Shown here: positions 3,430 to 47,600 of the stretch, one piece after another
Numbering within the stretch: the stretch's first letter is position 1
Layout: every line of letters begins with the position of its first letter
NCBI GenBank assembly: GCA_965153455.1
Contig: OZ234493.1
Span: forward strand, 4,650,001 to 4,714,000
Length of the DNA: 64,000 nt
Source: Sphagnum compactum
Lineage: Eukaryota
Reading direction: 5' to 3'
The notes under the pieces: generated by a model
Told to the model about the DNA's origin: nothing
Databases searched by the model: none
The model's input: only the letters and a program-made list of their open reading frames with translations
Program-made: the position numbers and the translations under genes

Positions 3430-5438
3430 ACGCACTTGAGTCACCAAATGTGGATCCACAAGGTACTTGAATAAGTTCATCTCCCTAGTAAGAGAATTTA
3501 ATATTGAGAAGCTTTGACGACCATTGTTTCACTTGTTGATCCTCCTACAAAGAGCTACTTAATCTTGCCTAGCTATAATGTAAAGTTGCAAGAAACACAA
3601 TACCAAAAATAAAGAATGCGAGTTCACACCTTCTTTGCAAGGCACAACCACCATGTTCTCACATTGCACTTTGAACATCTAGGCTCCTTGCTTGTGTGTA
3701 TATCCCATTACATTCTTTGGTTAGAAGCTTGGGATCATGTACACAAACCCAATAAGTCTCTCAAATGCCATTGTTATTGATAGAAAAATGAGGTCAACAT
3801 AGAAACATAATTGTGAAAGACAACATTCTACAAGATTGCAAAGAAAACACAATACAATTCCATGACATTGTAGAGAAATCTCCACACTTTTTTATGATAT
3901 TGCAAAGAAAAATCCACACAATTCTACAAGATTGCAAAAAGAATTGCACAATAAATACTTGGAAGATAATAAGAAAATAGGTGTAGACATAACCTTAGGA
4001 GAGTAGCTCACAAAACGACAAATTGTCATCACCTTTGTAGTTGCCATGACTCCTCCACTAATTTCATCATCTACTAATATCAATGATAGGTGTTGAAAAA
4101 CTAAACGAATATAATATCTCTAAAATTGCAACAAAAGAAATCTATGTGAACAACACACTTTGAAAATAAACAACACAATAAGTGTAGCAAAAAGACATGA
4201 ATCGTTCTAGAACATTTGCTAACAGATCAATTGTTAGTCACTTTGTCAATTTGCCATCACTTTGCCTTGTTGCATCTGTAGTTGACATCATCGAAGCTAA
4301 GTCCCAATAGCTAAAGAAACTTCTAACAAATGTAATGCTCATTTTTGAAGAAATTGAGACACAAATCTACAAAAAGTTTCCCAAACCAAGAACATGACAC
4401 TCTTGGCTCCATTTAGAATGGGTTTCTTTGAGCAAGAATTGTTCAACAATAACACCATAATTGCATAGTCTTGGAATTTCTGCAGCTATGCAAAAAGCTT
4501 CATGTCCTCCAGGTCTATACCTGTTTGTGTCTACAAGCCTATCACAATGGACTGAACCATTTGCTTGCTAATTCTTGCAACACATCACCCTTGCATCATC
4601 ATCAATTAGGAGCAAATTGCAAACAACAGGGTCACATCCTCATCACCAACTCTAGACATTCTTCTCATTCCCAAGTTGTAATTAACACTTGGGAACATAG
4701 TTGTTAAGAAAACCCTGATTGCTCTAAAACCTGAAAAGCTCCACCCAAGTTTTCCTCTTCACCATTGTGCCCCCTCAAAACAACCTGCTTGAATTCAACT
4801 TACTTGACTCATGAGCATGGGAATCTGAAACTGAAAACCAGAACCCTTCTTCAAATGGGCAAAATACTAGTGGTTCTCTCTCCTTGTTGATACCATTCAT
4901 TCTTGAATATTGGCAAGTGTTGAACAATTTGTGAGTTTCTGTCGAAATTTGGAACACGCCATTCATTCTTGAATGTTGCAAGTGTTGCACAATTTGTGGG
5001 TTTCTGTCAAAATTTGGAAGACTCAGCCATGATGCTCACTTGCAAACAAAGAACATGGCAAGGAGAACGAACACTAAGCACTCACATACTACATAGAAAC
5101 TAGAAGAAGAAACCAATGCAATCCATATGATGGAAAGCTCCTCTTTAATCCTCATGTTCCTGCATTTAGTTCTTCTCCAAATGAAAAAATTCTTCAGATT
5201 TGCACACACATTCCTTGAGCTTCTCTTGACGTTCAACAACTTGTAAGCAAATCTCCATCGTCTTACTGCATCGAGATTACAGCAAAATTTGCAACTGCAA
5301 TAACCTATCCATGCAGCTTTCAGCAGACTCAATGAAGAAGGGATTCGGAAAGTGGAACACATAAGAAGCTTTCGTTTCTGTGATGAAAGAAGTTTGCTCA
5401 AATTCCAAAGATAAGTGCTGACACTTCTTGTAATCCAT
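3430..5438 (-). pseudogene. Decayed, unidentified protein-coding remnant divergent from CSLD
   Basis: Minus frame from ATG at 5438 reads MDYKKCQHLSLEFEQTSFITETKASYVFHFPNPFFIESAESCMDRLLQLQILL*SRCSK...EKN*MQEHED*, with stops interrupting an otherwise protein-like frame. Further blocks downstream include LTIDLLANVLERF (~4200-4240) and EPRCSKCNVRTWWLC (~3640-3690). Family not recognised. Confidence 0.3.
4893..5019. repeat. ~66-bp tandem duplication
   Basis: Two near-identical copies of CCATTCATTCTTGAAT(A/G)TTG(G)CAAGTGTTG(A/C)ACAATTTGTG(A/G)GTTTCTGTC(G/A)AAATTTGGAA. Confidence 0.85.
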
Positions 5439-5627
5439 ATTCCTAGAAACCTCAATTAGAAGAGCAGACTGAAACGTCCTCTAGGAGTGTTGATGCACCA
5501 AGGGGAGAAGAAGAAGAAGAAGGAGAAAACAAAGTGAAGAGTCGTCACTGCGGAGAGAAGAGAGGCAAGGAAAAACAAGACCTTTCAAAACCCCGGTCCT
5601 AGACTTTTGTGTACCTGTAGTCACCAG

Positions 5628-5887
5628 GTCCTGCGGCGCCATTTCAAGTTTTCAGATCCTATTAGTCTCACGGGGAGAGAGAGAGAGTGAGACAAAAGAG
5701 CAAAACGAAAAAGGCGATGGAAGAAAAATTGCAATTCCCGACTACAGGGATTTACGTCCTGCGCCAAATTTTCAAGGTTTCAGATCCTATTCTCACGGGG
5801 AGAGCGCGACAAAAGGGCAAACAAACGGCGACGGAAGAAAGAAACTGCGCTGGGAAAGCGAAAACTGCGATCCCCAACTGCAGGATT
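5628..5887. repeat. ~128-bp imperfect tandem duplication upstream of CSLD
   Basis: GTCCTGCG...TTTCAAG(T/G)TTTCAGATCCTATT...CTCACGGGGAGAG...GACAAAAG...GGCGA(T/C)GGAAGAAA...ACT(A/G)CAGG occurs at ~5628 and ~5757. Confidence 0.8.
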
Positions 5888-6231
5888 CAGCCGGGTTCGT
5901 AGAAGCCTGCTGGACCCGGAGGATGGTTTGGCCATTGAGGTGACGAGTCCATTGTGCAGGCTGGATGGGCCCCGGTTGTTGACACCCGTATAGTTCGTCT
6001 TCCCGCTGCTGGCGGCGTGCCTTGGCGGCTTTCGTGGATCTCCGCACGTCGCCCCCTTCCCTTTAGCTCGTTGACGTTCTCCTCTTCGACGCGGTCGTTC
6101 GGACTCTCTGTAATACATCACTGTAACACGCGATTTATGTGGGGCCCTTCTCTCTCTTGTTCCCTCCTCCCCTTGATTGTTGTTGTTTGCTCATGCTCTG
6201 TCAATTTTGAATCTTGTTGTGAGGATAGTGC

Positions 6232-6293
6232 GAGAGAGAGAGAGAGAGAGGTTCTCGATTAAGAGATGTTGGAGTACAAAGGCTGAGGGGAAG

Positions 6294-6342
<49 letters not shown>
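6232..6342 (+). repeat. (GA)n microsatellites in the probable CSLD 5' UTR
   Basis: GA runs at 6232-6250 and 6296-6342, directly upstream of the ATG at 6364. Confidence 0.95.
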
Positions 6343-6343
<1 letters not shown>

Positions 6344-6363
6344 AGTTTCGGTTTGGGGTGATT

Positions 6364-9300
6364 ATGGTGTCGCCGAGGTCGGCTGCGACTGGCGGGGCGT
6401 TGGGATTCCGTGGAGGTGTGGCGATGAGACAAGGGGCGCAGAATGCTGCAGGTGGGGTGGTTGTGGAGAATTCCAGTAGCAACAACATCCCTTTGCATCA
6501 TCCTCAGGCGGCGGCACGTAGAGGAGGCGGAGGTCGTTACATGAACTTGTCGCGGGATGATAGTTCCATCGGCGGAGGTGACGACAGTGAGATGGGTTCC
6601 GAATTTCTCTACACTGTGCACATTCCCTCAACTCCCGACCATCAGCTCATGTCCGCCACACCTTCGGTGCGCTCCATGGATCCAGGAATTGCAGTGAAAG
6701 CCGAGCAGCAATTCGTGTCCAGCACCATCTTCACTGGCGGCTTCAATAGCGTGACACGAGGTCACGTGATGGAGAAGATGATGGAAGGCGAGGAGTCCAA
6801 CCATCACCATCCACAGCTTGCGTGCGCAAGGGGGGCTACTTGCTCCGTTGAAGGTTGCGATTCCAAAGCCATGCGAGATGAGCGCGGAGAAGACATGACT
6901 CCATGCGATTGCCAGTTCAAGATCTGTCGCGACTGCTACATCGACGCACTCAACTCGTCAGGGAAATGCCCCGGTTGTAAAGAGGAGTATAAGATTCTCG
7001 ACGAGGAGGAGCGCCCGATGAGGATGATTAGCAATGGAACTCACCACCACAATGGCGGCGGCACTGATTCCTCCTCAGACATCAGAGCTTTACCACCGCC
7101 CCCGTCTTCTTCCGCCGATGACGGCACCAACAAGAATCTGGAGCGACGTCTGTCTCTGCTCAAGGCTCAGCCGGGGGGCTTGCTCATGAGCAATCAGTCC
7201 TCGGACTTCGATCATACGCGTTGGCTGTACCAAACCAAAGGCACGTACGGCTATGGCAACGCCGTGTGGCCAAAGGATGATGGCTACACCAGCAGCAGCG
7301 GCAACAACAACAACAACAACGCACCACATTTGGGCTCGCAGCCTGATTTCAACGACAAATCCAGGCGTCCTCTTTCAAGGAAAGCTAGCATCTCACCAGG
7401 AATCCTTAGTCCATATAGGTAACAACAACACCCTAGTTCCACTTTCTCTCTCAATCCTCTAGACCCATGTGCAATCTTCTCCTCCTCCTCCTCTTCCTCG
7501 ACACCCACAATCCCCACAGAATCCCTGTTAGCCTCTTGCAGTTGTTTCCTTTTTTTTGGCACCTGAAGGAGGAGTTGCTTGTATCAATCTGTGAGAAACA
7601 AAGTCTCAGGGACAGAGAGAATGGAGCTCAATTGTGTATGATCTGCAGAGGAAAAAACACTTGCATTGTGTATGCATCTTCAAGCTTCCTTCTTGCACTA
7701 GATTACAAAGACCACCCAAGTGCTCTGCAAATTCTTTCTTGTTGGCCGGAGTGGAGTGGATTCCTGAAATGCTGCTAACTTCCAGAGGCTCAACATAGAT
7801 AGAGGTCTAGTTTGATTGATTGTGTCAACCTCTGAGATTTTGTGCACACTTTGCCAGGCTCGGTAGTAGCAGACATAGCACCAATCTTTTTTCAATTGAT
7901 GGCAGACTTTTTTTTCCTTTTGTTTTTTTTCATCTTGGTTTTTGCAGATTGCTCGTGGTGATACGGATGGTGGTTTTGGGCTTGTTCCTAACATGGCGTA
8001 TCAAGCATAAGAATGTGGATGCAGTGTGGTTATGGGGCATGTCAGTTGTGTGTGAGATCTGGTTTGCCTTCTCCTGGGTTCTTGATCAGCTCCCAAAGCT
8101 GTGTCCAATAAATCGAATGACAGATCTTCAAGTGCTCAAGGAGAAATTTGAGATGTCTACTCCAAATAACCCGTCTGGAAGATCTGACCTACCAGCTGTG
8201 GATGTGTTTGTCTCCACTGCTGATCCTGAAAAGGAGCCACCAATCACAACTGCCAACACAATTTTGTCCATTCTTGCTGCTGAGTACCCTCTAGAGAAAC
8301 TTTGTTGCTATCTTTCAGATGACGGTGGAGCACTTTTGACATTTGAAGCTTTGGCAGAGGCCGCAAACTTTGCAAGGGTTTGGGTTCCATTTTGTCGTAA
8401 GCATGACATTGAGCCTCGCAATCCTGAGACCTATTTTCTGTTGAGAGGCGATCCCACCAAGGGCAAAACGAGGTCTGACTTTGTCAAGGATCGGCGACGA
8501 GTGAAAAGAGAGTATGATGAGTTCAAGGTGCGCATCAATGGCTTGCCTGAAGCTATTCGTCGTCGCTCAGAGGCATACAATTCACATGAGGAGATTCGTG
8601 CAAAGCGTGATCAAATTGAGACTGGTGCTGATCCCTCAGAACCTTTTAGTGTGCCCAAAGCAACATGGATGGCAGATGGAACCCACTGGCCTGGCACTTG
8701 GACACAGTCAGGCAAGGAGCATGGACGTGGAGATCATGCAAGCATCATCCAGGTAAAAAGACCTACACTCCAATCTTCTCCACAGCCAATGCTTGTAGTA
8801 ATTGAGATTTAGGTTTTATCATACTGGAATCAATTTCATCAGCAGGTTGCATTTGAAGCTTTTTTATATATTCTGACTTGTGATCAAAATCTAGATGTCA
8901 TGATCTACTTGGAACAGGAACTAGCTATAAGCAGGAAAAACAGGCATTTTCCAAAACCCTAATTTCTTGCTAGTTACACTGAGGGAAGAAAGACTGATGG
9001 CTGGGCTGTGACTTTAGGTGATGTTGGCTCCTCCTACCAGTGAACCTTTGATGGGAAGCAATGATGAGGAGAATATGATTGATACATCAGACATTGATAT
9101 CCGCTTGCCGATGTTAGTCTATGTCTCACGAGAGAAAAGACCAGGTTATGACCACAATAAGAAAGCAGGAGCCATGAATGCATTGGTCCGGAGCAGCGCA
9201 ATCATGTCCAATGGCCCATTCATCCTGAATCTTGATTGTGATCACTACATCTTCAACTCAAATGCCATACGAGAGGCAATGTGTTTTTTCATGGACAGAG

Positions 9301-10958
9301 GGGGTGACCGCATTTGCTATGTTCAGTTCCCTCAACGGTTTGAAGGTGTGGACCCGAATGATCGATATGCAAATCACAACACTGTTTTCTTTGATGTGAA
9401 TATGCGAGCATTGGATGGATTGCAAGGGCCTGTGTATGTTGGCACTGGTTGTGTGTTCCGGAGAATTGCACTATACGGGTTTGATCCACCACGGATAACA
9501 GAGTATGGCCCATGCTGGCGCTTCTTCTGTTGCTGCTGCTTGGCAATGAAGAAAGAGAAAAAGCACTCACAGCCAGAGAAACGGGGTTCAGAGGTCAGAG
9601 CTATGACAGGTGCAGGTGGAACTAGTGATGAGGATGATGATATTGAGGCTGCTATGATGCCGAAGCGATATGGAGCATCTGTCAGTTTTGCATCCTCCAT
9701 TGCCGTGGCAGACTTCCAGGGCCGACCCCTTGATGACAAAGGTGTGCACAATGGGCGACCAGCGGGTGCACTCACTATCCCCCGGGAGCCTCTGGATGCT
9801 AGCACAGTTGCAGAGGCCATCAGTGTCATTTCTTGCTTCTATGAAGATAAGACAGAATGGGGGCAGAGGGTGGGTTGGATTTATGGTTCTGTCACAGAGG
9901 ATGTTGTCACAGGTTTCAGAATGCACAACCGTGGTTGGAGATCTGTTTACTGTGTGACCAAACGTGATGCCTTCCGTGGGACAGCTCCCATCAATCTCAC
10001 TGACCGCTTGCATCAGGTCATTTCTCTCTTCCACTACCTGCATGCATGCATCCAGTGATTCCTTGACAATAACTGCAGATTATTTGTTGTTTGCCACCAG
10101 GCCAGCATAGAGTGAGAATGAGACTCTGTGTGGGTGTTTTTCACTGAAGTGGTGGTCAAATCGCAGGTGCTGCGGTGGGCAACAGGCTCGGTTGAGATAT
10201 TCTTCTCACGCAACAATGCTCTGCTGGCCAGCACACGCATGAAGTTCTTGCAGCGTGTGGCATACCTGAATGTGGGCATCTACCCCTTCACTTCCGTGTT
10301 CCTCATCGTCTACTGCTTCTTGCCCGCACTCTCCCTCTTCACAGGCCAGTTCATTGTCCAGTCACTCAACCTCTCTTTCCTCATCTACCTCCTTACGATT
10401 ACTGTCACACTGTTTATGCTTGCCATTCTGGAAGTGAAGTGGTCCCGCATTACACTAGAAGAGTGGTGGAGAAATGAGCAGTTTTGGGTCATTGGTGGCA
10501 CGAGTGCACATCTTGCAGCTGTGTTCCAAGGATTACTGAAAGTCATTGCTGGTATCAATATCTCATTTACCTTAACCTCAAAGTCAGGAGCTGAGGATGA
10601 AAGCGACATATACGCAGACCTGTATGTTGTAAAATGGAGTTCGCTCTTCATTCCTCCAATTACAATCATCCTGACAAACATCATCGCCATAGCTGTTGGT
10701 TGTTCTCGTACCATCTATAGCACAATTCCACAGTGGAGCAAGCTGCTTGGTGGCATGTTCTTCAGTCTATGGGTTCTGTTTCATCTCTACCCATTTGCAA
10801 AGGGTCTCATGGGCAGAGGTGGCCGTGTACCGACTATTATTTATGTGTGGTCGGGCCTGCTGGCTGTTATTATCTCCCTGCTGTGGGTCTATGGCAGCCC
10901 TTCTTCAAGTAACTCTCAAACAAGTGGAGGAAGCAGAGGCTTTCAGTTCCCATTCTAG
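6364..10958 (+). CDS. CSLD: Cellulose synthase-like protein D (GT2), 4 exons: 6364-7418, 7948-8752, 9018-10016, 10167-10958 (~1216 aa)
   Basis: CSLD N-terminal motifs [10 protein letters not shown] and [22 protein letters not shown]-type zinc finger (CSVEGC...[11 protein letters not shown]...CPGC). [56 protein letters not shown], and QVLRW spanning intron 3, followed by C-terminal TM helices. All introns are GT-AG and the joined length 3651 nt is in frame. Confidence 0.97.
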
Positions 10959-33323: not shown

Positions 33324-36317
33324 CGAGGGCTGTTGTGTTGTGATGGGCAGATTGCATGGATAGTGGTGCATGGGCCATGGCATTATTTCCAAGGCTTCAA
33401 TTGAACATAAATATCATTTTTTGTAATGATTTTATACTTCAGGTAACAGATATTCCCTCAAAGTATATATCATTTGATACAAACATGTGTGTGTAGATGG
33501 GATGTGGAAACATATGAAATATGGTAGTATCCACCCAAATTCAAATCCTAATTTCAACAGATTAGTTGATTCATTGACTTTGTTTATGAGGTAGTTAGCT
33601 GACTAGATACTCTGACATATAGCCAGATTAACCTAGTTTGATGACTAAATTTAAATTCTTTTTTTCATTCAAATAGTGATTGTGCCAATTGATCATGATT
33701 AGCAACATGGTTGGCATGGTGTACAAAACAGTTGGTCATTTATGACATATCCATGATCATTCATGATATGCCATTAACAACAAGTCTTCACAAATCAACC
33801 AAATTGACAAGGACATAGATGACCATATGTTTTGTTTTGGTCATAGATGGTGAGATATGTATTGCTAAATCAAATTCTTGGTTGTAAACTTTGGACATTT
33901 GAGTGGATTTTTGTAGTAACGAAAGCACAAGATGAGTATATTTTGTTAGAATTTTTTTGTCGAATGCCAAATGATTGTTAATATGTCTTGAGAATATGAC
34001 ACACCACCAATGATATACACACTACCAATGACAATGAAGGAACATTAGGTTGGAATATGACCATGAATAATATGATACTATATGGAGTTGAATTTTGATA
34101 AATTGTTTTTGTTCATATGAGGACATATGTACATAATGGTTGTTGATGTAGATCTGGACAAATACATTAAATGAGCATAAGGTGGATAAGAAGCATGGTG
34201 GGTATTTAGGGAATGGTGATAGCTATTTATTGTTTATGTTGTTTTACAAATATAATCATAGTTGGGATATATTATATTTAGATTATTTTGGTTTAAGTTT
34301 GAGTGCCATATTGATTGCATATGTTATTCTGAAAACACCATATTATGTTTGTTGCATGACATTTGCATGTGTACTCTTTTAAGTGTTTAACATTGATTGA
34401 TTACTAGCAAGTAGTTGTATGGTGTCATATAGTAAATTTTTAGTTATTGGTGTAGTTGAATTGTATATTGTGAAATGTAGATGAAGAGTCGATGTGTCTA
34501 TTTTGATCAAGATTAATGATTGTTATTGTTAATCAATGGTAATTATTGTCACAAGGAATGAATTTGAAAGTTTAAAAATGTGTAGAACCAAAATGAAACT
34601 AGAATTGGAGCATAGGATTCAATTATAAAAAAAATCTAAAGTAGGATAGGTTATGAACATCCCAAGGTAGATTTTACATTTATTAACTGTGGTTTCTAGA
34701 AAATTGTTGAAAGTTTCTCTAAAAATTAGCAAAGTGATGACATATTGCCCTCAAACTAAGAAGGACATAAAAAACTTGGCAATATTTTTTCTAAAATCAA
34801 AGTTCTTTTTTGTTTCGGGGTTATTTTTGTAGAAAAAAGAGGTACTTGCAATAGTTCACTAGTGTTGGATTTTTTAAGCTTGAATTGGACAACACCAATT
34901 TGAATGTTACATACCATTTTACACATTGGCAAATTCTTTGGGAAATTTTAATCATTTGCCAAGAAATGATATCCAAAACTAGGTGTGTTGCAATCTTGCT
35001 AGGACAAAAATAATACTTCAATGCCTTAAAACGAAGGAAGGGGAAAATAAAATCATACCATGCAAAAAGGTCATTGATCATCAATATTACAAGATCACAC
35101 ATAATAGGGCCACATTGAAAATTATCCAAGTAACTTGCATTGCAATGCATAATGACAACATGTTTTGAAAAATAACTAAGCCAAATGAAACCAAATTAGA
35201 TATTCATATTGGATTTTGCCCCTTGTACTTGGTGTCATCATTGATGTATATACATATCATTCCAAAATTTTGGGGCTTGGTCTTCAAGGCAAGGGTCCTA
35301 GCCCTCATGGCTAAAGAAGCTATGAACCGTATTGGCTTTGAGTGGCATGACACCCTTATATATATATATATGACTTGATCATTTTTTCTCTAGATTTATT
35401 GAAAGTCTATGGTTTCAAGTGGTTCATATGTATGTATGTATGTGTGTGTGTGTGTGTAATTCAAATTATATAATTATCTGTTTTTAAAAAAAACATGAAA
35501 GGGCACATTAACATGTGCATTTTCATGTCCATGTTATATAGTAAAATAAAAATTGAAATTGACATAAATAATGATGAACTATTGGAAACCATATGGGAAC
35601 ATACGAGGGAAATTAAAATTGAGGGAGGGGAGAAAGTGATATTATTAAATTGATAAACCTCCATCTCCTTTACCATATTTTATCTTTTCTTCACATTTTC
35701 AAAATGTAGAGATTTACTTAACTATTAAAATACATTTCATAATTCTAGAGCTTTTTCCCCAACCACAGGGTCCTAGTTGGGGCCCTTAAAACATCCTAAG
35801 AAATTTCCTAGTGTACTTGGAAGGCAACTTATGAGGCAAAACTTGGGCATTGCCTCATCCTAAACCCTTTATTTTGGGAATGCACCCACCTTAGGGCTTT
35901 ACCTTCCATATAAATCTCCAAGATGATAGTCCTAACATTGATGCCTAAGGAAGAGGCTCTAACTCTTGAGCCACACGGGCAATGGCTGTTATTTGATACT
36001 AGTGGGTACCCGTGACCTTCGGACACTGTGAAGTCCCCCGGATTTTTTAAACCATATTTATTTTCTTTAAACCGGGAGCATGCCTCTCCCGGGCAAGACG
36101 GTTCCGGCGGATGCGCAGGTCCTCCAAAGGGGCCTCCTCTTCCTCTTCGTTCATTGGTTTAATGAGGGTTGTTGTGTTGAAGGGGGGGGGGGGGGGGGGG
36201 GAGATAGGTGAAGAGGTCCGTTCTGTGGGAAAGGTAACCAGGGAAACAAAAGGGATCCCAAGTTCTAGTGTAAATCGGGAATTTTTTTTGTTTCCCTAGT
36301 GTAAAGTCGACTAAAAT

Positions 36318-37229
36318 CTAGTGGGTACCCATGACCTTCGGACACGGTGAAGACCCCCCTTTCTTTAAACCTGGTTCATGTTTTAGTTTTTCCTAGAAAC
36401 TTTTATCTTATTTATTTATTTATTTATAAGTGTTTTCTGTTTTTATTATTATTTCGTATAATAATAATAAAGTGTTTCTTTTTCATTTTTGTATTTTTGT
36501 TTATTTGGATGCAAGTTTGAAGTTTGGAGAAAGAAGACGCACCTCATTCTTTTTCAAGTAGGGTTTTTTTTCATTATTATAAGTTTTATTTTTTTCTTAT
36601 TTTTTACTCTTTATTTGGTTTCTTCATTTTTTTAAAAAAAATTTGTCTTTTAAAATTATTTTATTGTATTTCCCTTTCTTTGTTTCATTTGTTTCCATGC
36701 CTTTTTTATAGTTTTATAGTTTTTACTTTTTTTTTGTTTATGTTTGTTTCATGTTTTTATTTTTTCTATTCTTATTTTGCCTATCTTCATTTTTTTTCTA
36801 TTTTATGCATTTATTTATTTATTTTGTTTCTATTTTCTTTTTCAAAAAGATTCTAGTTTTTCAAATATATTTTATAATGAAAATAATTTTAAAAAACTTT
36901 TGTATTTTTGTTTGATTAGATGTAGGTTTGAAGTTTGTAAAAAGAAGACAAACCTCATTTTTTTTTCAAGTATGGTTTTTTTCTCTTTCTTTTGCTCTCT
37001 GTTTATGTTTTTATTTTTTTTCTAGTTTTTTCCCTTTTAAAAATATATATTTGTTCTGTTTTTTTCTTTTTGGTTACAACTTTGTTTCATATTTTTAATT
37101 TATTAATAACTTGTTTTCTTCTTTTTTAATTTGAAAATTTTAATTTGTTGTTGCCGCTTTCGTCGTCCTCCTCTTCCATCATCTTCTTCTTCAGGGATGA
37201 GGAAGTTGGATGGATGGAAAGGACGACCA
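36318..37229 (-). repeat. Left arm of a long inverted repeat (non-autonomous Helitron module, T-rich on +)
   Basis: Reverse complement aligns with 42823-44032, including the GC block TGGTCGTCCTTTCCATCCATCC...GAAGAAGAAGATGATGGAAGAGGAGGACGACGA and the block CTTGAAAAAGAATGAGGTG...CAAACTTCAAACTTGCATCCAAATAAAC. Ends in hairpin-CTAG at 36318. Confidence 0.9.
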
Positions 37230-37292
37230 TCGCAAGCCAACAAAACCACCGATATGTTTTTCTTTTTTTTTCCTCTGACGAAATTAGTTTAG

Positions 37293-37382
37293 GCCTCGGC
37301 AGGAATGGAGGCCCTGAGGATTATGATTTCTGGAGTTCCGGCATCTGGAAAGGGGACGCAATGTGAGCTCATTACAACCAAC
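37293..37382 (+). pseudogene. ADK: Captured exon of a plastid-type adenylate kinase (P-loop), with upstream intron acceptor
   Basis: Translates as ASAGMEALRIMISGVPASGKGTQCELITTN, matching the plant chloroplast adenylate kinase motif LKIMISGAPASGKGTQCELIT. Preceded by a pyrimidine tract, a CTGAC branch-point-like motif and TTTAG (37288-37292). Confidence 0.85.
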
Positions 37383-37446
37383 TTTGCTTTCAACAGACCT
37401 CTTCACCTATCTCCCCCCTTTCAACACAACAACTCTCATTAAACCG

Positions 37447-40400
37447 ATGAACGAAGAAGAAGAGGAGGCCCTTTTGGAGGACCCGCGCATCTGCCGGAAT
37501 CATCTTGCTCGGGACAGGCACGTTGCTCGATCTGAGGAGCAACGTGCGGCAGATGCGAACCGGCGAGCAACTCACAGAGCTGCGCGTAGTGATGCGCAAA
37601 TTGCTACGAATGCCAGCCGACGGGCAACTCAGAGAGCTATGCGTAGCGATGCGCAGATTGCAACGGATGCCAACTGGCGAGCAGCTCAGAGAGCTGCGCG
37701 CAGCGATGCCCAGATTACAGCGGATGCCAACCGACGAGCAGTTCAGAGAACTGCGCGCAACGATGTGCAGAATGCAACGAATGCCAGCTGGCGGGTAGTT
37801 CAGAAAACTACGCGCAACGATGCGCAAATTGTTTTGGAAAATGTTGTGTGTGTTAACGCCCGGACACTTTTGCATTCTGATAGGCAACAGCAAATGCATA
37901 ACGCGGATCCTCAGGCTCACCAGGGCCAACGTGAGCAATTGTCGGAAGAGCGTCGCCAAGAAATTCGAAACGTTGACCGTCAAGCACGCAGTGCCCAGCG
38001 TGAACTGGATGGCGCAAACCAAGGTGGGAATCAAATGATACCTTTGGCGCGCCATGAATTTGATGGTAGCCATCGTGGTCTTCGCCACACTTTAGGTGAA
38101 ATGACCACCGTGTGTGGCAAGTGCGGCGCCCTACACTTTTTGGAAGAGCGTGTCGCATCAAGTTCATGCGCCAATCCGCAATTTACACTGTGCTGCGCGC
38201 AAGGTAAAGTGACGCTGCCCCCATTGGCACCCCCACCAGAGCCACTCAGGCGACTCCTTGTAAGTAAAGAAACGGATGCGAAAGACTTTCGTCAGCACAT
38301 CCGCTCTTACAACAGTGCGTTAGCCTTCACGTCTGTGGGGGCCAAGCTGGATACTAGTGTTGCCCAACCTGGCAATTATACTTACCGTCTTCGCGGTGAG
38401 CTTTACCATAGGATGGGGAGTCTACTTCCTCAACCTGGCAAGGCGCGAAAATTCGCCCAACTGTACATCAGCGATCCGCATGCTGAGCTTGATGGCCGAA
38501 TGGGCAATTTTGGTGGCCTGAATAGGGACACCATGCAATCGTTGCAAACGATGTTACATGCATGCAACCCCTATGCCATCATCTACCAAACGGCCGCGGA
38601 ACGGCTCCAAGGCGGGGCTATTGAGCTAAGTCTTCGTTTGGTGAACGATCGCCGCACTAATTTGCGACGTTATAATGCGCCAACTGTTGACGAAGTTGGC
38701 GCATTGATGGTTGGGGGCGATGTGGATGAAGTAGACGTGCGCGACATTGTTGTGCGTTCGACTAATGGCTATTTTCAGTGCGTCTCTCCCCTGCACAGTG
38801 CATATGCGCCATTACACTACGTCCTTCTTTTCCCAGATGGACGCAACGGATGGCATGACGGCATCCCATTGAATGGATTTCAATGGGATGGCTCTGTGTT
38901 CATCCAGGATGACGAGAATACAGTAGGTGGTAAACGCGGTTCTGCGCGCGTCACCATGCTTCAATTTTATGCATACATGCTACAACATCGCGTCAACGAG
39001 GAATGGATTCTACGAGCCGGAAGGCTTTTGCAGCAATTCATTGTTGACGCGTATGCATGTAATGAACAGAACCGCTTGAAGTTTATTCGCGAGAACCAAC
39101 GACAGTTGCGTTGCGACCTGTACAATGGTCTTCAAGATGCATTGAATGCTGGCGACGTTCTCAGGAACGACGTCGGGCAGAAGATGATTCTCCCGTCGTC
39201 ATTCCAGGGTGGTGAGCGCGCCATGTACCAGGATGCCATGGCCAGGGTCCGCAAATTTGGTAAGCCGGACCTTTCTGTCACATTTACCTGTAATCCTAAA
39301 TGGAAAGAGATTACATATGCGCTTCTCCTGGGATTACATATGCGCTTCTCCTGAGATTACATATGCGCTTCTCCTGGGACGCTTCAGACTGCCAAGGATC
39401 GCCCAGAGTTAGTAACTCGCGTTTTCAATTTGAAACTTGACGCCCTTTTGAGGGACATCAAAGACGGTGTTCTTGGCAATGTGATTGCTTAAATTTGGGT
39501 CATCGAGTTTCAAAAGAGAGGCTTGCCCCACGCACACATTTTGCTCATTTTAGATGAAGCGTCAAAATTGCGCACTGCCGAGGACTTCGATTCGATGGTA
39601 TCGGCCGAGATTCCGGATTCGATACGCCATCCTGAGGCGTACGAGACGGTCATTTCGTGCATGGTGCATGGGCCATGTGGTCCAGATTTTCTCAATGCAC
39701 AATGCATGGAGGAAGGAAAGTGCAAGAAAAGGTACCCGTGTTCCTTTAGTGAAGAAACGCGCTGTGATGTTGACGGGTACCCCGAGTATCGGCGCCGTCA
39801 AACTCGCATTTTTGTAGATCCAAAGACGCAACGCGTGGTGGATAACCGGTGGAAGTCCCGTATAATCTTCAAGTCCCGTATAATCTTCACCTGGCAACCA
39901 AGTACCACGCGCACATCAATGTGGAGATATGTTCGTCCATATCTACCGTCAAGTACCTGTACAAGTATGTGTACAAGGGACCTGACCGTGCTACTGCCGT
40001 TGTCGAAAGGCAGGCGAATAGGCATGGCCAGGAGAACAATGCGCAAGTGGTTGTTGCTAATGGTGAGGGGCAAAACCACGATGAAATTAAAGCATACCTT
40101 GAAGGACGTTATGTCTCTGCTTCTAAGGCATCGTGGCGTCTTTTCTCTTTTAGAATGCATGAAGGGACACCGTCTATCACACGCCTTGCCGTGCACGAGC
40201 CTGCAATGCATAAGGTCGTGTACAATGATAATGCCAATATTTTTGAAACTATTAATAGCGAGCAAAACCAGAAAACAACGCTCACCGAATACTTCCAAGC
40301 TAATATTGATTACCCCTTGGCCAGAAAAGTCACGTACATGGATTTTCCCTCTGTGTTTACATGGACCAATGGGACGAAAAAATGGACCATCCGACAGAGA

Positions 40401-42362
40401 GGGTGCTGTGTCGAGCGCCTTTATTTTGTCAGTCCTTTCGCTGGCGAACGCTATTTCTTGCGTACATTGTTAACGAAGGTCAAAGGTGCTGTTTCTTTTG
40501 AAGTTCTTCGCACAATTAACGATGTTGTCCATGACACATTCAAATCAGCGTGCATTGCGCTTGGTTTGTATGACTCGGATGACGAGTGGAATGCCTGCTT
40601 AGAAGAAGCAGTTGGCATGCAAACAGGTGCGCAATTGCGATCTCTGTTTGTGACCATCTTGGCCTTTGGCGTTCCAGGTGAGCCGCGCATGCTCTGGGAC
40701 AAGTATAAGGAGCACATTTGTGATGATTGTAAGGTAGCATTGCAACATCGCGGTATAGTGGAACCGTCCATTGAGCAAATTGAGAGTTGGGCATTGCATT
40801 CCTTACAGGATGCGCTTGCCAAATTTAACAAAACTCTCGAGGAATTTGGCCTTCCTGCCCCCTCTGTTGCCTTTGATCGATTAGAGACCAATCGCCTGCT
40901 TGAAGTGGAGCGCGACTACAATGTCGACGTCTTGCAAGCCGAGGTGGCTATGGCCATTGAGAACCTCAATGATGGGTAGCGTGCAGCCTATGATGGCGTA
41001 ATCAATGCATATGCTGCCCATCACGCTAAAGCCATCTTTATCGATGGCCCCGGTGGAACGGATAAAACTTACACCGAAAACTTGATTTTGAATGTTGTGC
41101 GTTCGCGTGGCGATATTGCATTTGCTGTCGCCTCTTCAGGCATTGCTGCACTTCTGCTCTCAGGAGGACGAACGGCCCATTCGTACCTGAAGATCCCGAT
41201 CGCACTTGACCGTACGTCCCTATGCTGTATCCGTAAGCAGGATGATTTAGCAGCGCTAATCCGTCAAACAAAACTCATCCTTTGGGATGAAGCTCCTATG
41301 ACTAATAAGCTCGCTTTTGAAGCGGTGGATCGAACTTTGCGTGACCTTACAGACAGGGATGAGCCCTTTGGCGGCATTGTTTTCGTCATGTCAGGGGACT
41401 TTCGCCAGGTCCTTCCGGTCATCCCCCGGGGATCCCATGCAGACATTGTCTCTGCATCTATCAAGAACTCCTTCCTATGGGAATCTGTTGAGGTATTCCG
41501 TCTTTCGGAAAATATGCGGGCCGCTGATGCCGTTGCTGTTCACCCCGATCTTGGGAATCGCACTTTTGCAGACTGGCTTCTTTGTCTTGGCAACAACGAG
41601 CTAGAAACCATCGATGAAGACTACATCAAATGTCCAGACATGATGAAACTCCCTCCTGCGGACACACGAGCCATGGCTGTGGCCATCTACCCTCAACTAC
41701 ACGAGGGCCAGGTCACAAACGAGTATTTGCGTGAACGCACGATTTTGGCTCCTCGCAACAAGGAGGTTTCGCTAATAAACGTGATGGTTTTAAGCTACTT
41801 TCCAGGCGCGCAAGTTGACTTCCTCAGTGCGGATTTTGCAAAGGACATGGAAGTGGCGAACACATACCCTTCTGAGTTCCTCAACACTTTGGAAGTCAGT
41901 GGCATGCCTTCACACAAGCTGTCGTTCAAGATTGGCGCACCAGTGATGCTGTTGCGCAATCTCGACCCATCGGCTGGGCTATGCAATGGGACGCGCCTGA
42001 TTATTCGATGCTTCACGATGCGAGTCGTTGAGGCTGAGATCATCACAGGCAAAGGGGCTGGTAATGTGGCCTTTATCCCGCGCATTAAGTTCATTTCCGA
42101 TAATAGCGGTTTGCCATTTACATTTCCAAGGAAGCAATTTCCTTTGCGGCTAGCCTATGCGATGACTATTAACAAGTCTCAAGGGTAGACCCTCTCTCAT
42201 GTTGGCCTTCATCTCGCAGATGACGTTTTTTCGCATGGCCAACTTTATGTTGCCTTTTCACGCGCCAAGGCACCAACGAACATCAAAGTTCAACTGCCAG
42301 ACACTATGCATGGCCGGATTGGCCTTATGCGCAATGTTGTGTACGAAGAAGCCCTCCTTTGA
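37447..42362 (+). pseudogene. Helitron RepHel transposase (HUH Rep plus PIF1 helicase), intronless, disrupted
   Basis: Zn motif CGKCGALHF...CCAQGKV, RSYNSALAFTS, FAQLYI, LLQQFIVDAY, ILPSSFQGG. Rep motifs PDLSVTFTCNPKW, EFQKRGLPHAHILL (HUH) and KYLYKYVYKGPD (Y2). Helicase motifs FIDGPGGTDKT, ILWDEAPM, GDFRQVLPV, LCNGTRL, QFPLRLAYAMTINKSQG*TL and FSHGQLYVAFSR. Lesions: frameshifts at ~39307-39390 and ~39852, stops at 39490, 40977 and 42186. Confidence 0.97.
37530..37830 (+). repeat. 57-bp (19-aa) coding tandem repeat in the RepHel N-terminus, about 5-6 copies
   Basis: G(C/T)A(A/G)(C/T)TCA..GA blocks start at 37567, 37624, 37681, 37738 and 37795; peptide unit approx. RSDAQIATDANRRAAQRAA. Confidence 0.9.
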
Positions 42363-42799
42363 GGCTGCATGCATCTCCTAAATGGCTCCGCGAGAAGCTA
42401 CATTCACGATGTGCAGCTGTTTGAAATAAAAACTTGGGGGTTAGGGTTAGCACGCCCTTCATAAACGCTTTTCAAAAGAAGAAAGCTTGGAATCTGCTCA
42501 AATCCTCCACAAATCTCAGCAATTTCAAAACCTATTTTTTTTCTCCTCAAAATGTGGCGATTTCAAAACCTTTTTTTTTTCCCCTCCTGGAAATGTGGCG
42601 ATTTAGTTTTGTTTTAGAAATTTTCCAAAATGCTTGCTTCACCATGTATGTTTTCATGGGGGACTTTTCAACGGATTTTCGTCACAAAAAATAAATAAAA
42701 TAAAAATAAAATTAGCTGCTTTGCGCCTTTGTGTGTGTCTCTCTTGGTTTAAAGAAACTGGGGGACTTCACAGTGTCCGAAGGTCACGGGTACCCACTA

Positions 42800-44413
42800 T
42801 CTACTTATATAATATCCTTGGGTGGTCGTCCTTTCCATCCATCCGTCCCGTCATCCAAGTTCTTCATCCCGGAAGAAGAAGATGATGGAAGAGGAGGACG
42901 ACGACGACTCATGACGGCGACAACAGTTTATCCACATGTTCATGTGATCCAATCCTGTAGTTTATGAAAAACTCCTGTAGTCTTGCAATTTGCCAAAAGC
43001 TACAAACTAATTTTAAAAAACTAAAAATTGTTGAAAAAAAAATGAGAAACAAGAGAAGAAATCTTTTTAAAACAACACAAGAAATTTCAAATTAAAAAAG
43101 AAAAAAAAAGTTATTAACAAATAAATAAAATGAAACAAAGTTGTAACAAAAAAGAAGAAAACAGAACAAATTTTTTTTTTAAGGGAAAAAGCTAGAAAAA
43201 AAAAACAGAAAAACATTTTAACAATTAGAAACTTTTTTAAAACACTTAAAAATAGAAAAAAATGAAAACATATAAAATAAATATATTTAAACATGAAACA
43301 AAAAAGGGAAATATAGTAAAATAATCTTAAAAGAAAATTTAAAAATAGATGACAAAAAATAAAAAACAAAATAGACAGCAAAAGAAAGAGAAAAAAAACC
43401 ATACTTGAAAAAAAAAAAAAGGTTTGTCTTCTTTTTCCAAACTTCAAACCTGTATTACAAAAATACAAAAGTTTTTTAAAATTATTTTCATTACAAAACA
43501 TATCAGAAAAACTAGAATCTTTTTGAAAAAGAAAATAGAAACAAAATAAATAAATAAATAAATGCATAATTTAAAAAAAAAATGAAGATAGACAAAATAA
43601 GAATAGAATAAATTAAAGCATGAAACAAACATAAACAAAAAAAAGTAAAAACTCAAAAACTATAAAAAAAAGGATGGAAACAAATGAAACAAGGAAAGGG
43701 AAATATAGTAAAATAATTTTAAAAGAATTTTTTTTACAAAAATGAAGAAACCAAATCAAGAGTAAAAAATAAGAAAAAATAAAACTTATAATAATGAAGA
43801 AAAACCCTGCTTGAAAAAGAATGAGGTGTGTCTTCTTTCTCCAAACTTCAAACTTGCATCCAAATAAACAAAAATATAAAAGTGAAAAAGAAACATTTTA
43901 TTTTTATTATACAAAATAATAAAAAAAAACAGAAAACACATTAAAAAAATTTTTTTAAAAAAAGTTTCTAGAAAAAACTAACATGAACCGAGTTTAAAGA
44001 AACCGGGGGACTTCGTTGTGCCCGAAGGTCACTGTTCGTCCGGTCGTCCTCCTTGGGTTGTATGTTGGGGGCGCGTTAGTGGGTATGTGTAATTTGGGGG
44101 AGGGATGATATATCATAGGCTGTGATTGGGTTCAGCAAGTAACTATCGAATAATCAATATATTTATTTTTAAGGATTTAGTTTTCACACATGTTCATGAG
44201 TTTATTTTTTAATTTTTTTATGTTGCAAGTATGACAAGGTTTGTTGAAATTTTCAGAAAATTATTTGAACTTAGACTTGCAAATTACACCTTTTTTCAAA
44301 AATAAACATTTTGAATTATGTTGTTTTGTTATGTATAGAGTTCGTAATATTGTTAATAGAAGAGAAAGTGATGTCATATGTCACAGTGTCCGAAGGTCAC
44401 GGGTATCCACTAG
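42800..44413 (+). mobile_element. Nested non-autonomous Helitron (1.6 kb); contains the right arm of the long inverted repeat
   Basis: 5' A|TCTACTTATATAATATCC at 42800 and 3' CAGTGTCCGAAGGTCACGGGTATCCACTAG|T at 44413. A/T target. An internal truncated terminus lies at 44005-44032. Confidence 0.8.
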
Positions 44414-44689
44414 TTATAGATAGAGATGTACCTATATACCTATTTTGGCTATCAAAACTCAATGTAAATTTCAAGTTTTAAAAACTCCCAAAGCCACAAT
44501 GTGGGATGAAGTGGTGACAAATAGGAAGTCCCATGCTTATACAACTACATAAAATATTATAGAGGCCATTTCCAAAACAAAAGATAGGTTAGGAATTTGG
44601 AAAGTAGTTGTGGGGAGTATCCACATTCTATTCTTAAAATAATGGTGTCATTTCCATGAACTAATTCCCAAACAAATTGGTTTAAAATT

Positions 44690-47600
44690 TACATAAAACC
44701 CTTTCACTCCTTGGTTTTCAATGTAAAAATATATACATATATCTAGTTGGCTATATATGTATTTGGACAAAGGCTTTCTAGTTGCCATTGTAATGTGGGG
44801 GAATTTTCAATTTGTAACAAATATACCTTTTAAGTACGTTCAAGTATGATGCAATTCCCTACAAATTTAGGAACATGATTAAGGTTTGGTTTTGGTGGTG
44901 GGTATATTGGTCTTTGGGGGGGGGGGGGGGGGGGGGGGGCTTCAATCAATCGTTGAAATGATCTTCCATGCAAGTTTTTAATTACATGAAAATCTTGCTT
45001 TTCTTGTAATCCTTCATGTTTTGTGTCTAATGATTCTATTTATAACCTAAGTTTCAAAAACCAGACACCACTTGGACTTAGATTTTCATTTTTTAGTTTT
45101 GTTCCCATTATTTTTTAAAAGTTAAATTCAACAAGGTTCAACATTTTTATGATTAACAAAATTGATTTATTTCATTCTTGTACTTGTCTAAGTACACTTG
45201 GTTCCAAAAGGTTCCATTTAAATATGTTTACTTTTTGTGAAAATAGCCTTCCAACATCTTTTTTGCCCTACTCCACCCAAATGCTTTTCCAACCTAAATG
45301 TTTGTTTTGATGTATTTTGTGTGGTCAAGAAGTCTTAAAAAGCGATTCAATTATCAATCCCATTTGAAGCATGATTGGATCATTAATAACATGCAATTGA
45401 AATTCAAAAACATAAAGTCAACAATGCAATGAAAAAATGTTGGACATTAAAGTTTAATAAACTTTAAACATATTTCATGTGTACATATTTCAACACAAAT
45501 CATATATTTCAAAAATTGTTATATGATTGATCTATTGATCCAAACTTTAAATCCAATGGTGTACAAACTTCTAACAATTTAAGAAACATTTTCAATTGAA
45601 TCAACACGAATATGATAAAATGTGGGCATATCCAATATCAACTTTCACTAATTATTGGAATTTGATTTGTGACAACCCACCAAAAGGGATGTGTGATCTA
45701 GTCACTTGTATCATATAATGTAATTAAGGGAACCAAAAAAATGAATTATTGAACATGAATCATATACTTACATGAATTGAATGTTTTGCTTTCTTCATAA
45801 ACTTGGTCCAACATTCAACTATAACAATTGAGCTTCGATGTACAATAGACAACATTACATGTTAGATAAGATCCATAAACAATGGAAAAATGAAAGGGAG
45901 AACTTTAGGGTTCATAATTAGGTAGATGGAAATCATTTTGACCTTTTTGTCATCCAAAAGACTTTTCTATTCAAATGGGAAGCATATTCATTCACAATGC
46001 ATGGCATGCTAGCATAAGGTGTGAAGAGTTTCCTCTATGTTGCAGTTGGAAAAGAGTCAAACAAAGGAAGGTTGTATGTAGAGTGCACCCATCTTATTTC
46101 ATTTGTTTCTACAGCGAACCAACTAAAAGTGGATCCCTTAATCCTTTGATCAAAAACCTAGTTGTGGTCTGGAGAATATGATGGAAAGTAAGAAAGGTAA
46201 TTGGAGGTTCCTAAAGTTGGATGTTGTAAAGGAACAACATGAGTTGGAGCTTTCTTGCCATAGGAGGGAGTCCAAAACCTCTAGGAATGTATATGCTCCC
46301 AAAAGTTGGAGGGAAATCCAAAGTGCTAGATTTGTAAGAAGGGAGAGTGCACGAAAGAAGAATAACCACCCAGCAATTGTCAAATTTGTGGCAAATATGA
46401 GAAAAAACACAAAGAGGATGGAATGTACAAGAAATATGGGGGAAGTGAGGGAAAATAATGTGTTGAGGAGGATTTTAGCTTCGTCCCAAGAAACTCCACG
46501 AGCAATTGCACAAGAACGACTTGTCGACCAATTGAAAAAAGATGTCAAATTGGGATTTAAGATGCAACCTAGCGAAGACTTATTGCAAGCATTTAGGCAA
46601 TTCGGAATAATGAAACACAAGAGTAGGGTGGAGATGGTTCTCAAAGACAACAAGAAGGAACTTTCAAGGAGCCACCAACAACGATTATTCCCAACAAATT
46701 TTCACATCATGAACCCAGGGTGGCGCATTTGAACAATGGATCCTTCATTATTAATCCTCCAAAGTCAATGATTTCCAACCAAATTTCATGGGTTTAGTAA
46801 TGGCTATAAGACCATTCATATATATTATTTTGTTGGGAGCATCTTGATGTACAAGATTTGTTCCAACTTGTCAACAAATATCTTGCCAAAAAATATTCCC
46901 ACCAAAAGAAAAAAGATACCAACAAAGGAAACTCAACTCTCATGTTTAATACAACCTATGTTGTTCACAACAAAATAATGTTGCCAAAACTATTTTCTTC
47001 CTCTCCACCTTCCATACTCTTGCAACGAGCTCCAGGTTAGCCTTCCATTTTCATTCAAATTCCCCTCATCCTCTAGAGCACACACATCATCAACATCATT
47101 GTCATTATGAGTTAATTTTTAGCTTCCAACTTTTCAATTTTCAAAATCACTCTCTAAATGGATTTGAAAGATACAACATGTTTGAGTTGATAATATTCCT
47201 TTACATACATGCAATCAAGATCTTTAAATTGTCTTGAAATGACTAAATAATAAGAATAATAGTTTGACAATTTGAAAATTTACAAATACAAATATATTAG
47301 TATGATTAAATGTAGGTTCAAATCCATAAAACAAGTCAATGTGTGATGGCATAAAGTTTCACATTTTAATTTATATCTTGACATCATGCAGTTCATCTTC
47401 AAGTGATTTAATTTATAATTCTTAAATTTTTGGTACGGAGAAATTTGACAAACATTTATGGAAGTCCTTGGAAATTTCAATGGGCAACCTCAAATCCTAT
47501 ATATGGTGAATTTAAATCCTACCCAATGGATGTATGCAAAACGTGAAGGGAGAAATAGAATCATCATATATTGCATTTAGCTACCATTGTTATCTTAACA

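Follow-up and report, generated by a model that had tools for sequence, protein, structure and literature searches.

A Helitron stack nested within the ends of one small Helitron, with outward-facing inverted termini, in Sphagnum compactum

Positions 35999-44426 of the window (the whole 64-kb stretch of DNA that was analysed) hold a Helitron stack of about 8.4 kb (8,428 bp) framed by the two ends of a single small Helitron. By comparison with a sister organism, this entire block is one insertion between a host A and a host T, with a 5' TC and a 3' CTAG on the minus strand and without target duplication. Helitrons are a rolling-circle class of transposons that lack terminal inverted repeats (TIRs), and the block shows a route by which apparent TIRs can come about in such a class. 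Since the stack is nested within the ends of a single small Helitron, its inverted ends are the outcome of nesting and not of a new transposon design. We put a probability of roughly 55% on the reading that the block is a compound Helitron of nested origin that arrived once, as a unit, and was mobilised in trans. The parts of the block, in window coordinates and with a slash marking a junction here and below, are as follows.

35998-36031: left arm of the pseudo-TIR (terminus T_L1, facing outward), one half of the 34-nt inverted pair (97%)
35999-36317, minus strand: segment X_L with terminus T_L1, the 3' end in use (CTAG/T), delimited by alignments of loci L098 and L066 and by varied flanks
36318-37254, minus strand: body (U') of the outer element H- with terminus T_L2 (36318-36372, CTAG then A), recognised by its fit to family 5' regions, as the ~85% reverse complement of 42823-44031 and by a terminus match
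37255-42800, plus strand: inner RepHel element, 5'-truncated (it starts with TG and has no LTS), with Pfam Helitron_like_N, PIF1 and Pif1_2B
about 37300-37370: adenylate-kinase-like peptide in the inner RepHel element
37972-42356, plus strand: RepHel pseudogene
42746-42800, plus strand: terminus T_R1 of the inner RepHel element, ending CTA with the final G missing
42801-44413, plus strand: N1, a complete 1.6-kb non-autonomous Helitron (5' TCTACTTATATAATATCC, 3' T_R3 with CTAG/T), delimited by alignments of loci L058 and L002
44381-44414: right arm of the pseudo-TIR (T_R3, facing outward, 13 nt inside the outer 5' end), the other half of the inverted pair, with a terminus-core match
44414-44426, minus strand: 5' end (LTS) of H-, its first 13 nt, TCTCTATCTATAA, absent from the empty site and resembling family 5' ends

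The limits of the insertion are given by organism B, a sister species in which the whole block is missing as a clean single gap. On a 12,783-bp contig with a depth of 33 (X5 record 25), window position 35997 is joined straight to 44426 with nothing between: record positions 4-328 align to 35690-35997, positions 329-809 align to 44426-44905, and a further piece aligns to 44956-45200. The empty site that the preliminary description had predicted, TTATTTGATA/TGTACC, is thereby found in a related organism. It reads ...TTATTTGAT(A)TGTACC..., the alignment resuming at 44426 with a 1-nt ambiguity over the A, and the host A/T boundary is 44426/44427. In view of this empty site, the outer TC...CTAG unit that had been proposed on the minus strand, with the RepHel gene antisense to it, has indeed inserted between A and T, and no host letters are duplicated. 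The flanks of the block differ from those of organism B at about 11 of about 790 letters (~1.4% divergence). In organism C, the match of X12 record 9 also ends at 35997 and is followed by 88 further letters.

In organism A, contigs of two samples span each outer junction with 0 differences (X1 records 1 and 7; X3 records 18 and 23). This reproduction in independent samples counts against an artefact, in which mis-assembled repeats would have yielded a palindrome-like order, although the arms are very high-copy, with depth bins up to ~110,000 as against ~20-40 in the flanks, and so invite assembly errors. The internal order of the block is that of the assembly, no contig among those listed crossing an inner junction; the arms are only ~85% alike, however, and are hence not collapsed duplicates. 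Alternatively, organism B could have lost the block by deletion or by excision, the latter having been proposed for Helitrons in maize according to extracts from PMC2267711, but its absence there is exact to A/T, with TC and CTAG at the ends of the block, which a random deletion would not give. Taken together, we regard an artefact or a loss as very improbable.

As had been described before, the two ends carry the same terminus, inverted relative to each other: positions 35998-36031 pair with 44381-44414 over 34 nt at 97% complementarity, with 1 mismatch (repeat search, with which self-BLAST agrees). At up to 1 mismatch, the 28-nt core of the terminus occurs four times in the 64-kb window, always within the region (35999 and 36318 on the minus strand, 42773 and 44386 on the plus strand), and has 0 occurrences in 100 shuffles; a fifth, truncated copy was found at 43992-44032 on the plus strand by repeat search and self-BLAST. 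The three inner copies are additions to the earlier account, as are the inverted arms of 0.9-1.2 kb, in which 36332-37229 is the reverse complement of 42823-44031 (self-BLAST, three segments, of 788, 139 and 82 nt, that are 82-86% identical). Among the family loci, 96 of 111 distinct termini end in CTAG, followed by T in 89 of these 96. Canonical Helitrons have a hairpin 10-12 nt before the 3' end; the terminal hairpin here appears weak, DNA folds of the four termini being no more stable than those of shuffles (z -0.13 to +1.01). The terminus sequence permits an imperfect short stem, GACTTC...GAAGGTC, near the 3' end and is highly conserved over 122 termini.

The block appears to be bounded by 34-nt TIRs because it has two outward-pointing 3' termini, that of the inner array, 13 nt short of the outer 5' end, and that of H-, on the opposite side. 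The pseudo-TIR is a by-product of an inner 3' end placed 13 bp inside an outer 5' end. A CACTA-type or other TIR transposon was rejected, the TAGTG.../...CACTA ends being the wrong way round and a duplication being absent; for the classical TIR transposons (hAT, MULE, CACTA, PIF) in general, the empty site holds no duplicated host letters. Fold-back through strand switching was likewise set aside, the arms being only ~85% alike and each having ordinary relatives of its own, and an inversion of the inner segment meets the same boundary problem and adds no explanation.

The frame of the block, H-, is a non-autonomous canonical Helitron of ~1.27 kb on the minus strand, made up of the 13-mer and of the sequence from 37254 down to 35999. 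Its 5' end reads A/TCTCTATCTATAA at 44427/44426 on that strand, starting with TC, and if uninterrupted would read TCTCTATCTATAA/TATCGG.... As a bare 13-mer, TCTCTATCTATAA is not significant (3 matches at up to 2 mismatches, as against 1.56 expected); it is accepted as a real 5' end because of the empty site and because 5' ends of the family, for instance TCTACTTATATAA in 9 loci, are homologous to it. The possible TC start suspected earlier, 13 bp outside the right copy of the terminus, is on these grounds genuine, and host DNA is ruled out as its source since the 13-mer is missing from the empty site. With a 5' TC, a 3' CTRR and insertion at A/T without duplication, the outer element has these three properties of canonical Helitrons (HLE1). 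Its body picks up the LTS from TATCGGTGGTTTTGT... and, from 37254 downward, fits the uninterrupted 5' regions of five family loci (L054, L101, L061, L058 and L043), no base being lost after ...TATAA. An inner boundary at 37229/37230 (A/TCGCAAGCC) was considered and dropped, since the homology of H- to family 5' regions reaches 37254.

At its other end H- finishes as ...CCCACTAG/T at 35999/35998, and in other contigs diverse flanks stand before 35996-35998 (13+19 in X3, 7 in X5 and 19 in X12). H- is itself chimeric, with T_L2 as a bypassed internal terminus. The arrangement is that of a compound Helitron: T_L2 lies unused inside, and behind it, joined at an ACTAG microhomology, comes X_L/T_L1, the 5'-cut 3' part of another family member, whose terminus T_L1 is the boundary of the block. 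This piece contains a G24 run and, separately, an inverted copy of 37392-37520 (matched to 36081-36222 by self-BLAST); L098 and L066 match 35997-36314 at 87-89% and continue into other sequence past 36314. Because X_L/T_L1 is 5'-cut and its missing part is absent here, with host DNA following 44426, H- was chimeric already on arrival.

H- is split after ...TATAA, 13 nt inside its 5' end, by a plus-strand insert of 7,159 bp (37255-44413) that lies antisense to it, between the A and the T of ...TATAA/TATC... and with no loss from H-. The first part of this array is the RepHel element, with plus-strand matches to Helitron_like_N (E 1.5e-29) and PIF1 (E 5.4e-68). The earlier statement that RepHel runs antisense to the outer element and has no recognisable 5' end holds, the gene being on the plus strand and the insert starting with TG at 37255; on the plus strand, TCTACTTATATAATATCC, sought upstream of RepHel as a family 5' end, turned up only at 42800. 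A homology boundary lies at 37255/6, where X12 shows a loose end before 37256 (4 contigs, 0.97 agreement). The exact A/T placement of an array that starts with TG may reflect an aberrant start or a later end-adjacent deletion.

The RepHel gene is dead, with 1 frameshift (tblastn of P0009 yields two frames) and 4 in-frame stops (39352, 39490, 40977 and 42186). No other transposase was found among the region's ORFs of at least 80 aa, and the outer element is not an autonomous Helitron, RepHel being opposite to its TC-to-CTAG direction and not intact. At 383 places in X1, mostly through transitions, the other copies have a prevailing letter that the window copy does not share. Given these many differences, the frameshift and the 4 stops, and the want of a TC 5' end, the inner array would be unable to move alone.

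N1 directly abuts T_R1 in head-to-tail order (42800/42801). Locus L058 matches 42821-44415 unbroken (1637 nt, 91.6%), L002 matches 43217-44414, and the T_R3-type 3' region occurs in at least 10 loci at 95-98% with different flanks. As N1 contains the truncated terminus at 43992-44032, it descends from an old tandem pair, and its recurrence with this inner terminus in L058 and L002 means that family composites with internal termini do propagate. Junctions of the CTAG/TC.. kind, like that of T_R1 and N1, are also present in L017, L043, L069 and L070.

The preliminary description had left a choice between a pile-up in which family members had inserted into one another's ends and a Helitron variant carrying its transposase in reverse with terminators on both strands. 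The dissection into H-, the RepHel element and N1 supports the former. A distinct variant, whether Heltir-like or two-stranded, would depend on TIRs formed by 3' termini on both strands and on an antisense transposase, and we find it scarcely credible. The near-perfect 34-nt inverted pair at the ends would suit it, but the right 'TIR' stops 13 nt short of the true boundary, and the true ends are an ordinary TC and CTAG at A/T with no duplication. The block does behave as one presence/absence unit, and maize Heltirs, as characterised in extracts from PMC3422177, have TIRs like Helitron 3' termini; against this, the transposase gene is dead, the array has no 5' end, and every part has ordinary relatives in one orientation. 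The junction was encountered nowhere else: inverted termini within 2 kb are found in 0 of 120 family loci (direct termini in 7 of 120), and the 20-mer across T_R3 and the reversed 13-mer, CCACTAG+TTATAGATAGAGA, has 0 exact matches in metagenome contigs that hold more than 120 family termini but not the locus itself, the count being for that reason uninformative on the absence of a second copy of the composite.

According to the preferred reading, a compound Helitron that arrived as a unit, the RepHel element with its dead gene and N1 would have come to lie head-to-tail and antisense inside the 5' end of H-, this stacking following a preference of the family for targets that resemble its own 5' end. 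One rolling-circle event, starting at the H- 5' end, could then have passed the inner termini, which are inverted and hence unreadable, passed T_L2 as well, and stopped at T_L1, with a living member of the family providing the transposase in trans. The X1 and X3 contigs over the right junction are unbroken at 44426/7, where a second identical-ended locus would break them; a donor with C for T at 44406 would escape this.

The presence or absence of the block fits arrival as one unit and stacking at the site equally. In a stepwise history, H- would have inserted here after the split from organism B, followed by the RepHel element and then N1 (or the two together) in the 13-nt hot spot at the start of H-, with the RepHel 5' end lost later and the block never having moved; we hold this to be possible, at odds clearly short of even. 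It would draw on the target preference of the family (33/89 versus 2/119, as set out below), on the end-to-end junctions of L017, L043, L069 and L070, and on the youth of the N1/T_R3 type, a subfamily whose copies occupy at least 10 different sites and are 95-98% identical. It needs, however, at least three events and an exact end-adjacent deletion in the short time set by the ~1.4% flank divergence, and a RepHel element with no 5' end and heavy decay would be hard to mobilise so late. A second composite junction was found neither in the metagenome contigs nor among the 120 family loci, as stacking at the site would have it, and maize offers documented cases of adjacent insertions made one after another (PMC2267711, in extract); even so, H- would have had to be a chimera, bypassed terminus included, when it arrived.

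The block belongs to known kinds, namely compound or nested Helitrons, and the maize Heltir is a look-alike; the published systems are compared here as they appear in extracts from the papers cited. Compound Helitrons formed by end bypass that propagate nested inserts include bat HelibatN539 (PMC4224331); that paper sets out the end-bypass model of Feschotte & Wessler (2001) and Tempel et al. (2007). Like these, which propagate nested inserts with the carrier, the block has a bypassed terminus, T_L2; unlike them, its cargo is an opposite-oriented Helitron array with a dead RepHel, seen at one locus. Adjacent CTAG/TC Helitrons that arose by consecutive insertion are known from the maize r1 region (Du et al. 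2008, PMC2267711, where the bat adjacent-Helitron cases of Pritham & Feschotte are cited). The junctions at T_R1/N1 and in L017, L043, L069 and L070 similarly set dissimilar elements side by side with no host A, but the G of CTAG is missing at T_R1/N1, and the outer pairing of the composite is head-to-head, not head-to-tail.

Maize Heltirs, whose TIRs resemble Helitron 3' termini (PMC3422177), are like the block in having such a terminus at either end, in inverted copies. In contrast to the Heltir, the block has its right arm 13 nt inside, real ends of TC and CTAG, and a single locus rather than a family. Elements of the HLE2 group (Helentron/Helitron2) have 12-16-nt TIRs and insert at T/T, and the example of Sphagnum magellanicum HelenSM92 (PMC11417382) places Helitron-like elements with short terminal inverted repeats in peat moss; unlike HLE2, the block has TC...CTAG ends and inserts at A/T, and the only matches of its RepHel are to Helitron_like_N and PIF1. 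What it offers is a cleanly delimited Helitron, backed by an empty site, that carries other Helitrons, together with a reversed and dead transposase gene. Such nesting would be mis-called by annotation software that works by matching TC with CTAG ends or by seeking TIRs.

A separate observation is that the 3' flanks of this Helitron family mimic the family's own 5' end: TATAA lies within 16 nt after CTAG/T in 33 of 89 distinct flanks, as compared with 2 of 119 control windows. It is tempting, if speculative and rather doubtful as a whole, to suppose that the family transposase picks targets that mimic its own 5' end (A/T, a few letters, TATAA), and that members would for this reason be steered, in either orientation, into the first 13 nt of one another. 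Insertion in antisense would place outward 3' termini on both strands of an element still mobile via the ends of its carrier, which might be a route from ordinary Helitrons to Heltir-type derivatives, seen here at its first step as a species-level insertion polymorphism. If they prove to be genome-wide, the 5'-end-like flanks would bear on target choice by the Rep nuclease and on the end-to-end clustering of Helitrons, and may matter more than the block itself.

Logan contigs from four public runs were aligned to window positions 35300-45200, and the run from a related organism (run X5, organism B) yielded a single 12,783-bp contig, at single-copy depth, that spans both flanks of the block at 35999-44426 uninterrupted.

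Alignment of the organism B contig to the window
35690-35997: contig letters 4-328
44426-44905: contig letters 329-809
44956-45200: continuation of the contig

Since this contig joins 35997 to 44426 unbroken, 8,428 bp are missing from organism B as one block. The empty site, which reads ...TTATTTGAT(A)TGTACC... in window letters at the contig's coordinates, with one A assignable to either side, is exactly the one that the preliminary description had predicted. On the minus strand the block reads A|TCTCTATCTATAA......CCCACTAG|T, that is, a 5' TC and a 3' CTAG at an A|T target without duplication. Both outer junctions were recovered with 0 differences in two samples of organism A (X1, records 1 and 7; X3, records 18 and 23), and the flanks of organisms A and B, with about 11 differing letters in about 790, plus indels, are about 98.6% alike. 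Contigs from all runs break at the G runs at 36181-36204 (G24, inside the block, within its segment 35999-36317) and 44915-44939 (just outside it); the place homologous to G24 in metagenome loci L098 and L066 holds only G6-G9. Left of the block, 35300-35630 is an unrelated high-copy repeat (depth about 3,400-9,000 versus 10-40 in the single-copy flank) where about 40 contigs per run stop at 35603 with an A run next; a retroelement or SINE may end here in its poly-A tail. The window is plant-like and also carries a CesA-type cellulose synthase gene at 6229-10958 (+), with a RING zinc finger and Cellulose_synt across four exon-sized ORFs.

The inverted termini reported at the two ends of the block are real, and their coordinates exact: 35998-36031 and 44381-44414 form a 34-nt pair that is 97% complementary. 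The 28-nt terminus core occurs in four copies at ≤1 mismatch in the window, against 0 in 100 shuffles, and the block holds five copies of the family terminus in all, including a truncated one.

Copies of the family terminus in the block
35999, minus strand: terminus copy
36318, minus strand: terminus copy
42746-42800, plus strand: copy ending in CTA and abutting TCTACTTATATAATATCC
43992-44032, plus strand: truncated copy
44381-44413, plus strand: terminus copy

The 3' end at the left terminus truly exists in many copies, as seen from dozens of contigs that start matching at 35996-35998 with unlike flanks (13 + 19 in X3, 7 in X5 and 19 in X12, the run of organism C; agreement 0.45-0.57). The 3' hairpin of the family terminus has a predicted stability no better than that of shuffled sequence. 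Elsewhere, locus L108 carries three terminus copies in tandem at 51-nt spacing, a micro-satellite with the 3' end as its unit, and one subfamily of termini among the matches listed has C runs of 8-11 upstream. In L046 a lone terminus, about 50 nt long, has the identical 14-mer TTCTATCTATCACA on both sides. It resembles a very small insertion of the terminus alone, bounded by a direct repeat, something that to our knowledge is not expected of canonical Helitrons.

The block was resolved by comparing the window with at least 120 loci, carrying 122 termini, from a terminus scan of metagenome contigs. A 5' region common to L054, L101, L061, L058, L043, L011, L025, L022 and L017 reads TCTACTTATATAA|TATCCTTGGTTTTGT...GGTCGTCCT, and the outer 13-mer, continued on the minus strand at 37254 and downwards (TATCGGTGGTTTTGTTGGCTTGCGATGGTCGTCCT), matches it with 0 bases missing. 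Given this seamless fit, 44426-44414 and 37254-35999 constitute one element, H- (1,269 bp), interrupted by a 7,159-bp insert (37255-44413) placed between A and T. Within H-, 35999-36317 represents the 3' portion of a different family member, matched by L098 and L066 at 87-89%; these loci run into other sequence past 36314, where the window copy is cut and fused to the terminus at 36318 at an ACTAG microhomology. As the missing 5' part of that member is not at the locus, H- must already have been chimeric, one terminus bypassed, on arrival. The pseudo-TIR is a by-product of how the elements are nested: 13 nt in from the outer 5' end lies the 3' terminus of the inner array, pointing outward, and that of the outer element points outward at the opposite side.

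At its 3' side the insert has a proper CTAG|T end, but it starts with TG and lacks a family 5' end. Four organism C contigs match from 37256 on, and the sequence preceding this point differs from the window and is concordant among the four, so that the inner RepHel (Rep-helicase transposase) element is 5'-truncated relative to its relatives. RepHel lies on the plus strand (Helitron_like_N, E 1.5e-29; PIF1, E 5.4e-68), the closest named relative of its helicase being a Sphagnum magellanicum protein (84% identity), and is flanked by inverted arms, of which 36332-37229 matches 42823-44031 in reverse complement (82-86% identity). A tblastn search with a 1,460-aa RepHel (P0009) matched two stretches that differ in frame, 37972-39852 and 39873-42356; stop codons interrupt the reading at 39352, 39490, 40977 and 42186 (all in frame), and judged from its sequence the gene is dead. 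In the Rep domain region a 23-nt unit stands in triplicate tandem at 39307-39379; other copies lack the triplication, and their contigs skip 52-59 nt there. A 57-nt unit forms four to five tandem copies (78-79% alike) at 37549-37831, in the N-terminal part of the reading frame. Ahead of RepHel, a short open stretch at about 37300-37370 (+) encodes the peptide MEALRIMISGVPASGKGTQCELI, which we take to resemble the P-loop start of plant adenylate kinase, and probably stems from a host exon captured in part. The remainder, N1 (42801-44413), forms a single non-autonomous element of the ordinary sort: L058 matches it without interruption (1637 nt, 91.6%), L002 from 43217 onward, and its 3' region recurs in at least 10 loci at 95-98% identity with different flanks. 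As its internal truncated terminus shows, N1 stems from an old tandem pair whose two members have since spread together.

The empty site alone does not discriminate between one arrival event and several. We give a probability of about 0.55 to arrival in one step, in which the ends of H- would have served to mobilise a pre-formed composite in trans. H- was chimeric in any case, and the inner array has no 5' end, a much decayed gene and 383 differences in X1, mostly transitions, from the prevailing letters of other copies; with flanks so nearly identical, a late separate insertion into a freshly landed H- is hard to picture. N1, moreover, shows that composites with inner termini do propagate in the family, and PMC4224331 documents that end bypass forms compound Helitrons and that nested inserts can be propagated. 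Against a single event, no second copy of the composite was found, the junction 20-mer having 0 exact matches in metagenome contigs (which do not include the window's own locus), and the contigs over the right junction do not branch in either X1 or X3, a test blind to a donor with C for the window's T at 44406. Among the matches listed, 0/120 loci have termini in inverted orientation within 2 kb, versus 7/120 with direct ones. Stepwise stacking at the locus is the main alternative, though less likely, and neither course accounts for how an insert without a 5' end came to sit exactly between A and T; an artefact, a deletion or a true variant share the little probability that is left.

The block is thus a compound, nested Helitron, an instructive case with clear boundaries, though of kinds already known. 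With its TC 5' end, CTAG 3' end and A|T insertion without duplication, the outer unit agrees, the hairpin excepted, with a canonical (HLE1) non-autonomous Helitron; an autonomous one was rejected, RepHel being dead. Classical TIR transposons leave a target duplication, which the block lacks, and this class was ruled out. So was HLE2, defined in PMC11417382 by T|T insertion and terminal 12-16-nt TIRs, neither of which the outer unit has. Maize Heltirs, compared by their one-sentence description in PMC3422177, resemble the block only in inverted copies of the 3' terminus, and no Heltir-like family is evident here (0/120 loci, among the matches listed).

Flanks of the 122 termini, with positions +61 to +76 as control windows, pointed to a target preference. 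Among the matches listed, 96 of 111 distinct 3' flanks follow CTAG, 89 of these 96 begin with T, A and T make up nearly all of positions +6 to +12, and TATAA lies within +1 to +16 in 33/89 distinct flanks (2/119 control windows). Preferred targets thus look like the 5' end of the family itself (TCTACTTATATAA; T-TACTTATATAA), a target mimicry that is the most interesting loose end of the analysis. At the block itself, the flank at 35985-35998 (TATCAAATAA, minus strand) belongs to the host and occurs in the empty site as well. This profile suggests a reason for end-to-end stacking: in L017, L043, L069 and L070, among the matches listed, and at window 42800|42801, the 3' end is joined straight to a family 5' end (CTAG|TCT..TATATAA). 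In maize, G/T head-to-tail junctions between unlike Helitrons are ascribed to consecutive insertions, according to PMC2267711. The reverse complement of the outer 13-mer (TTATAGATAGAGA) is again T followed by A/T-rich sequence, so that an antisense insertion there would be unsurprising.
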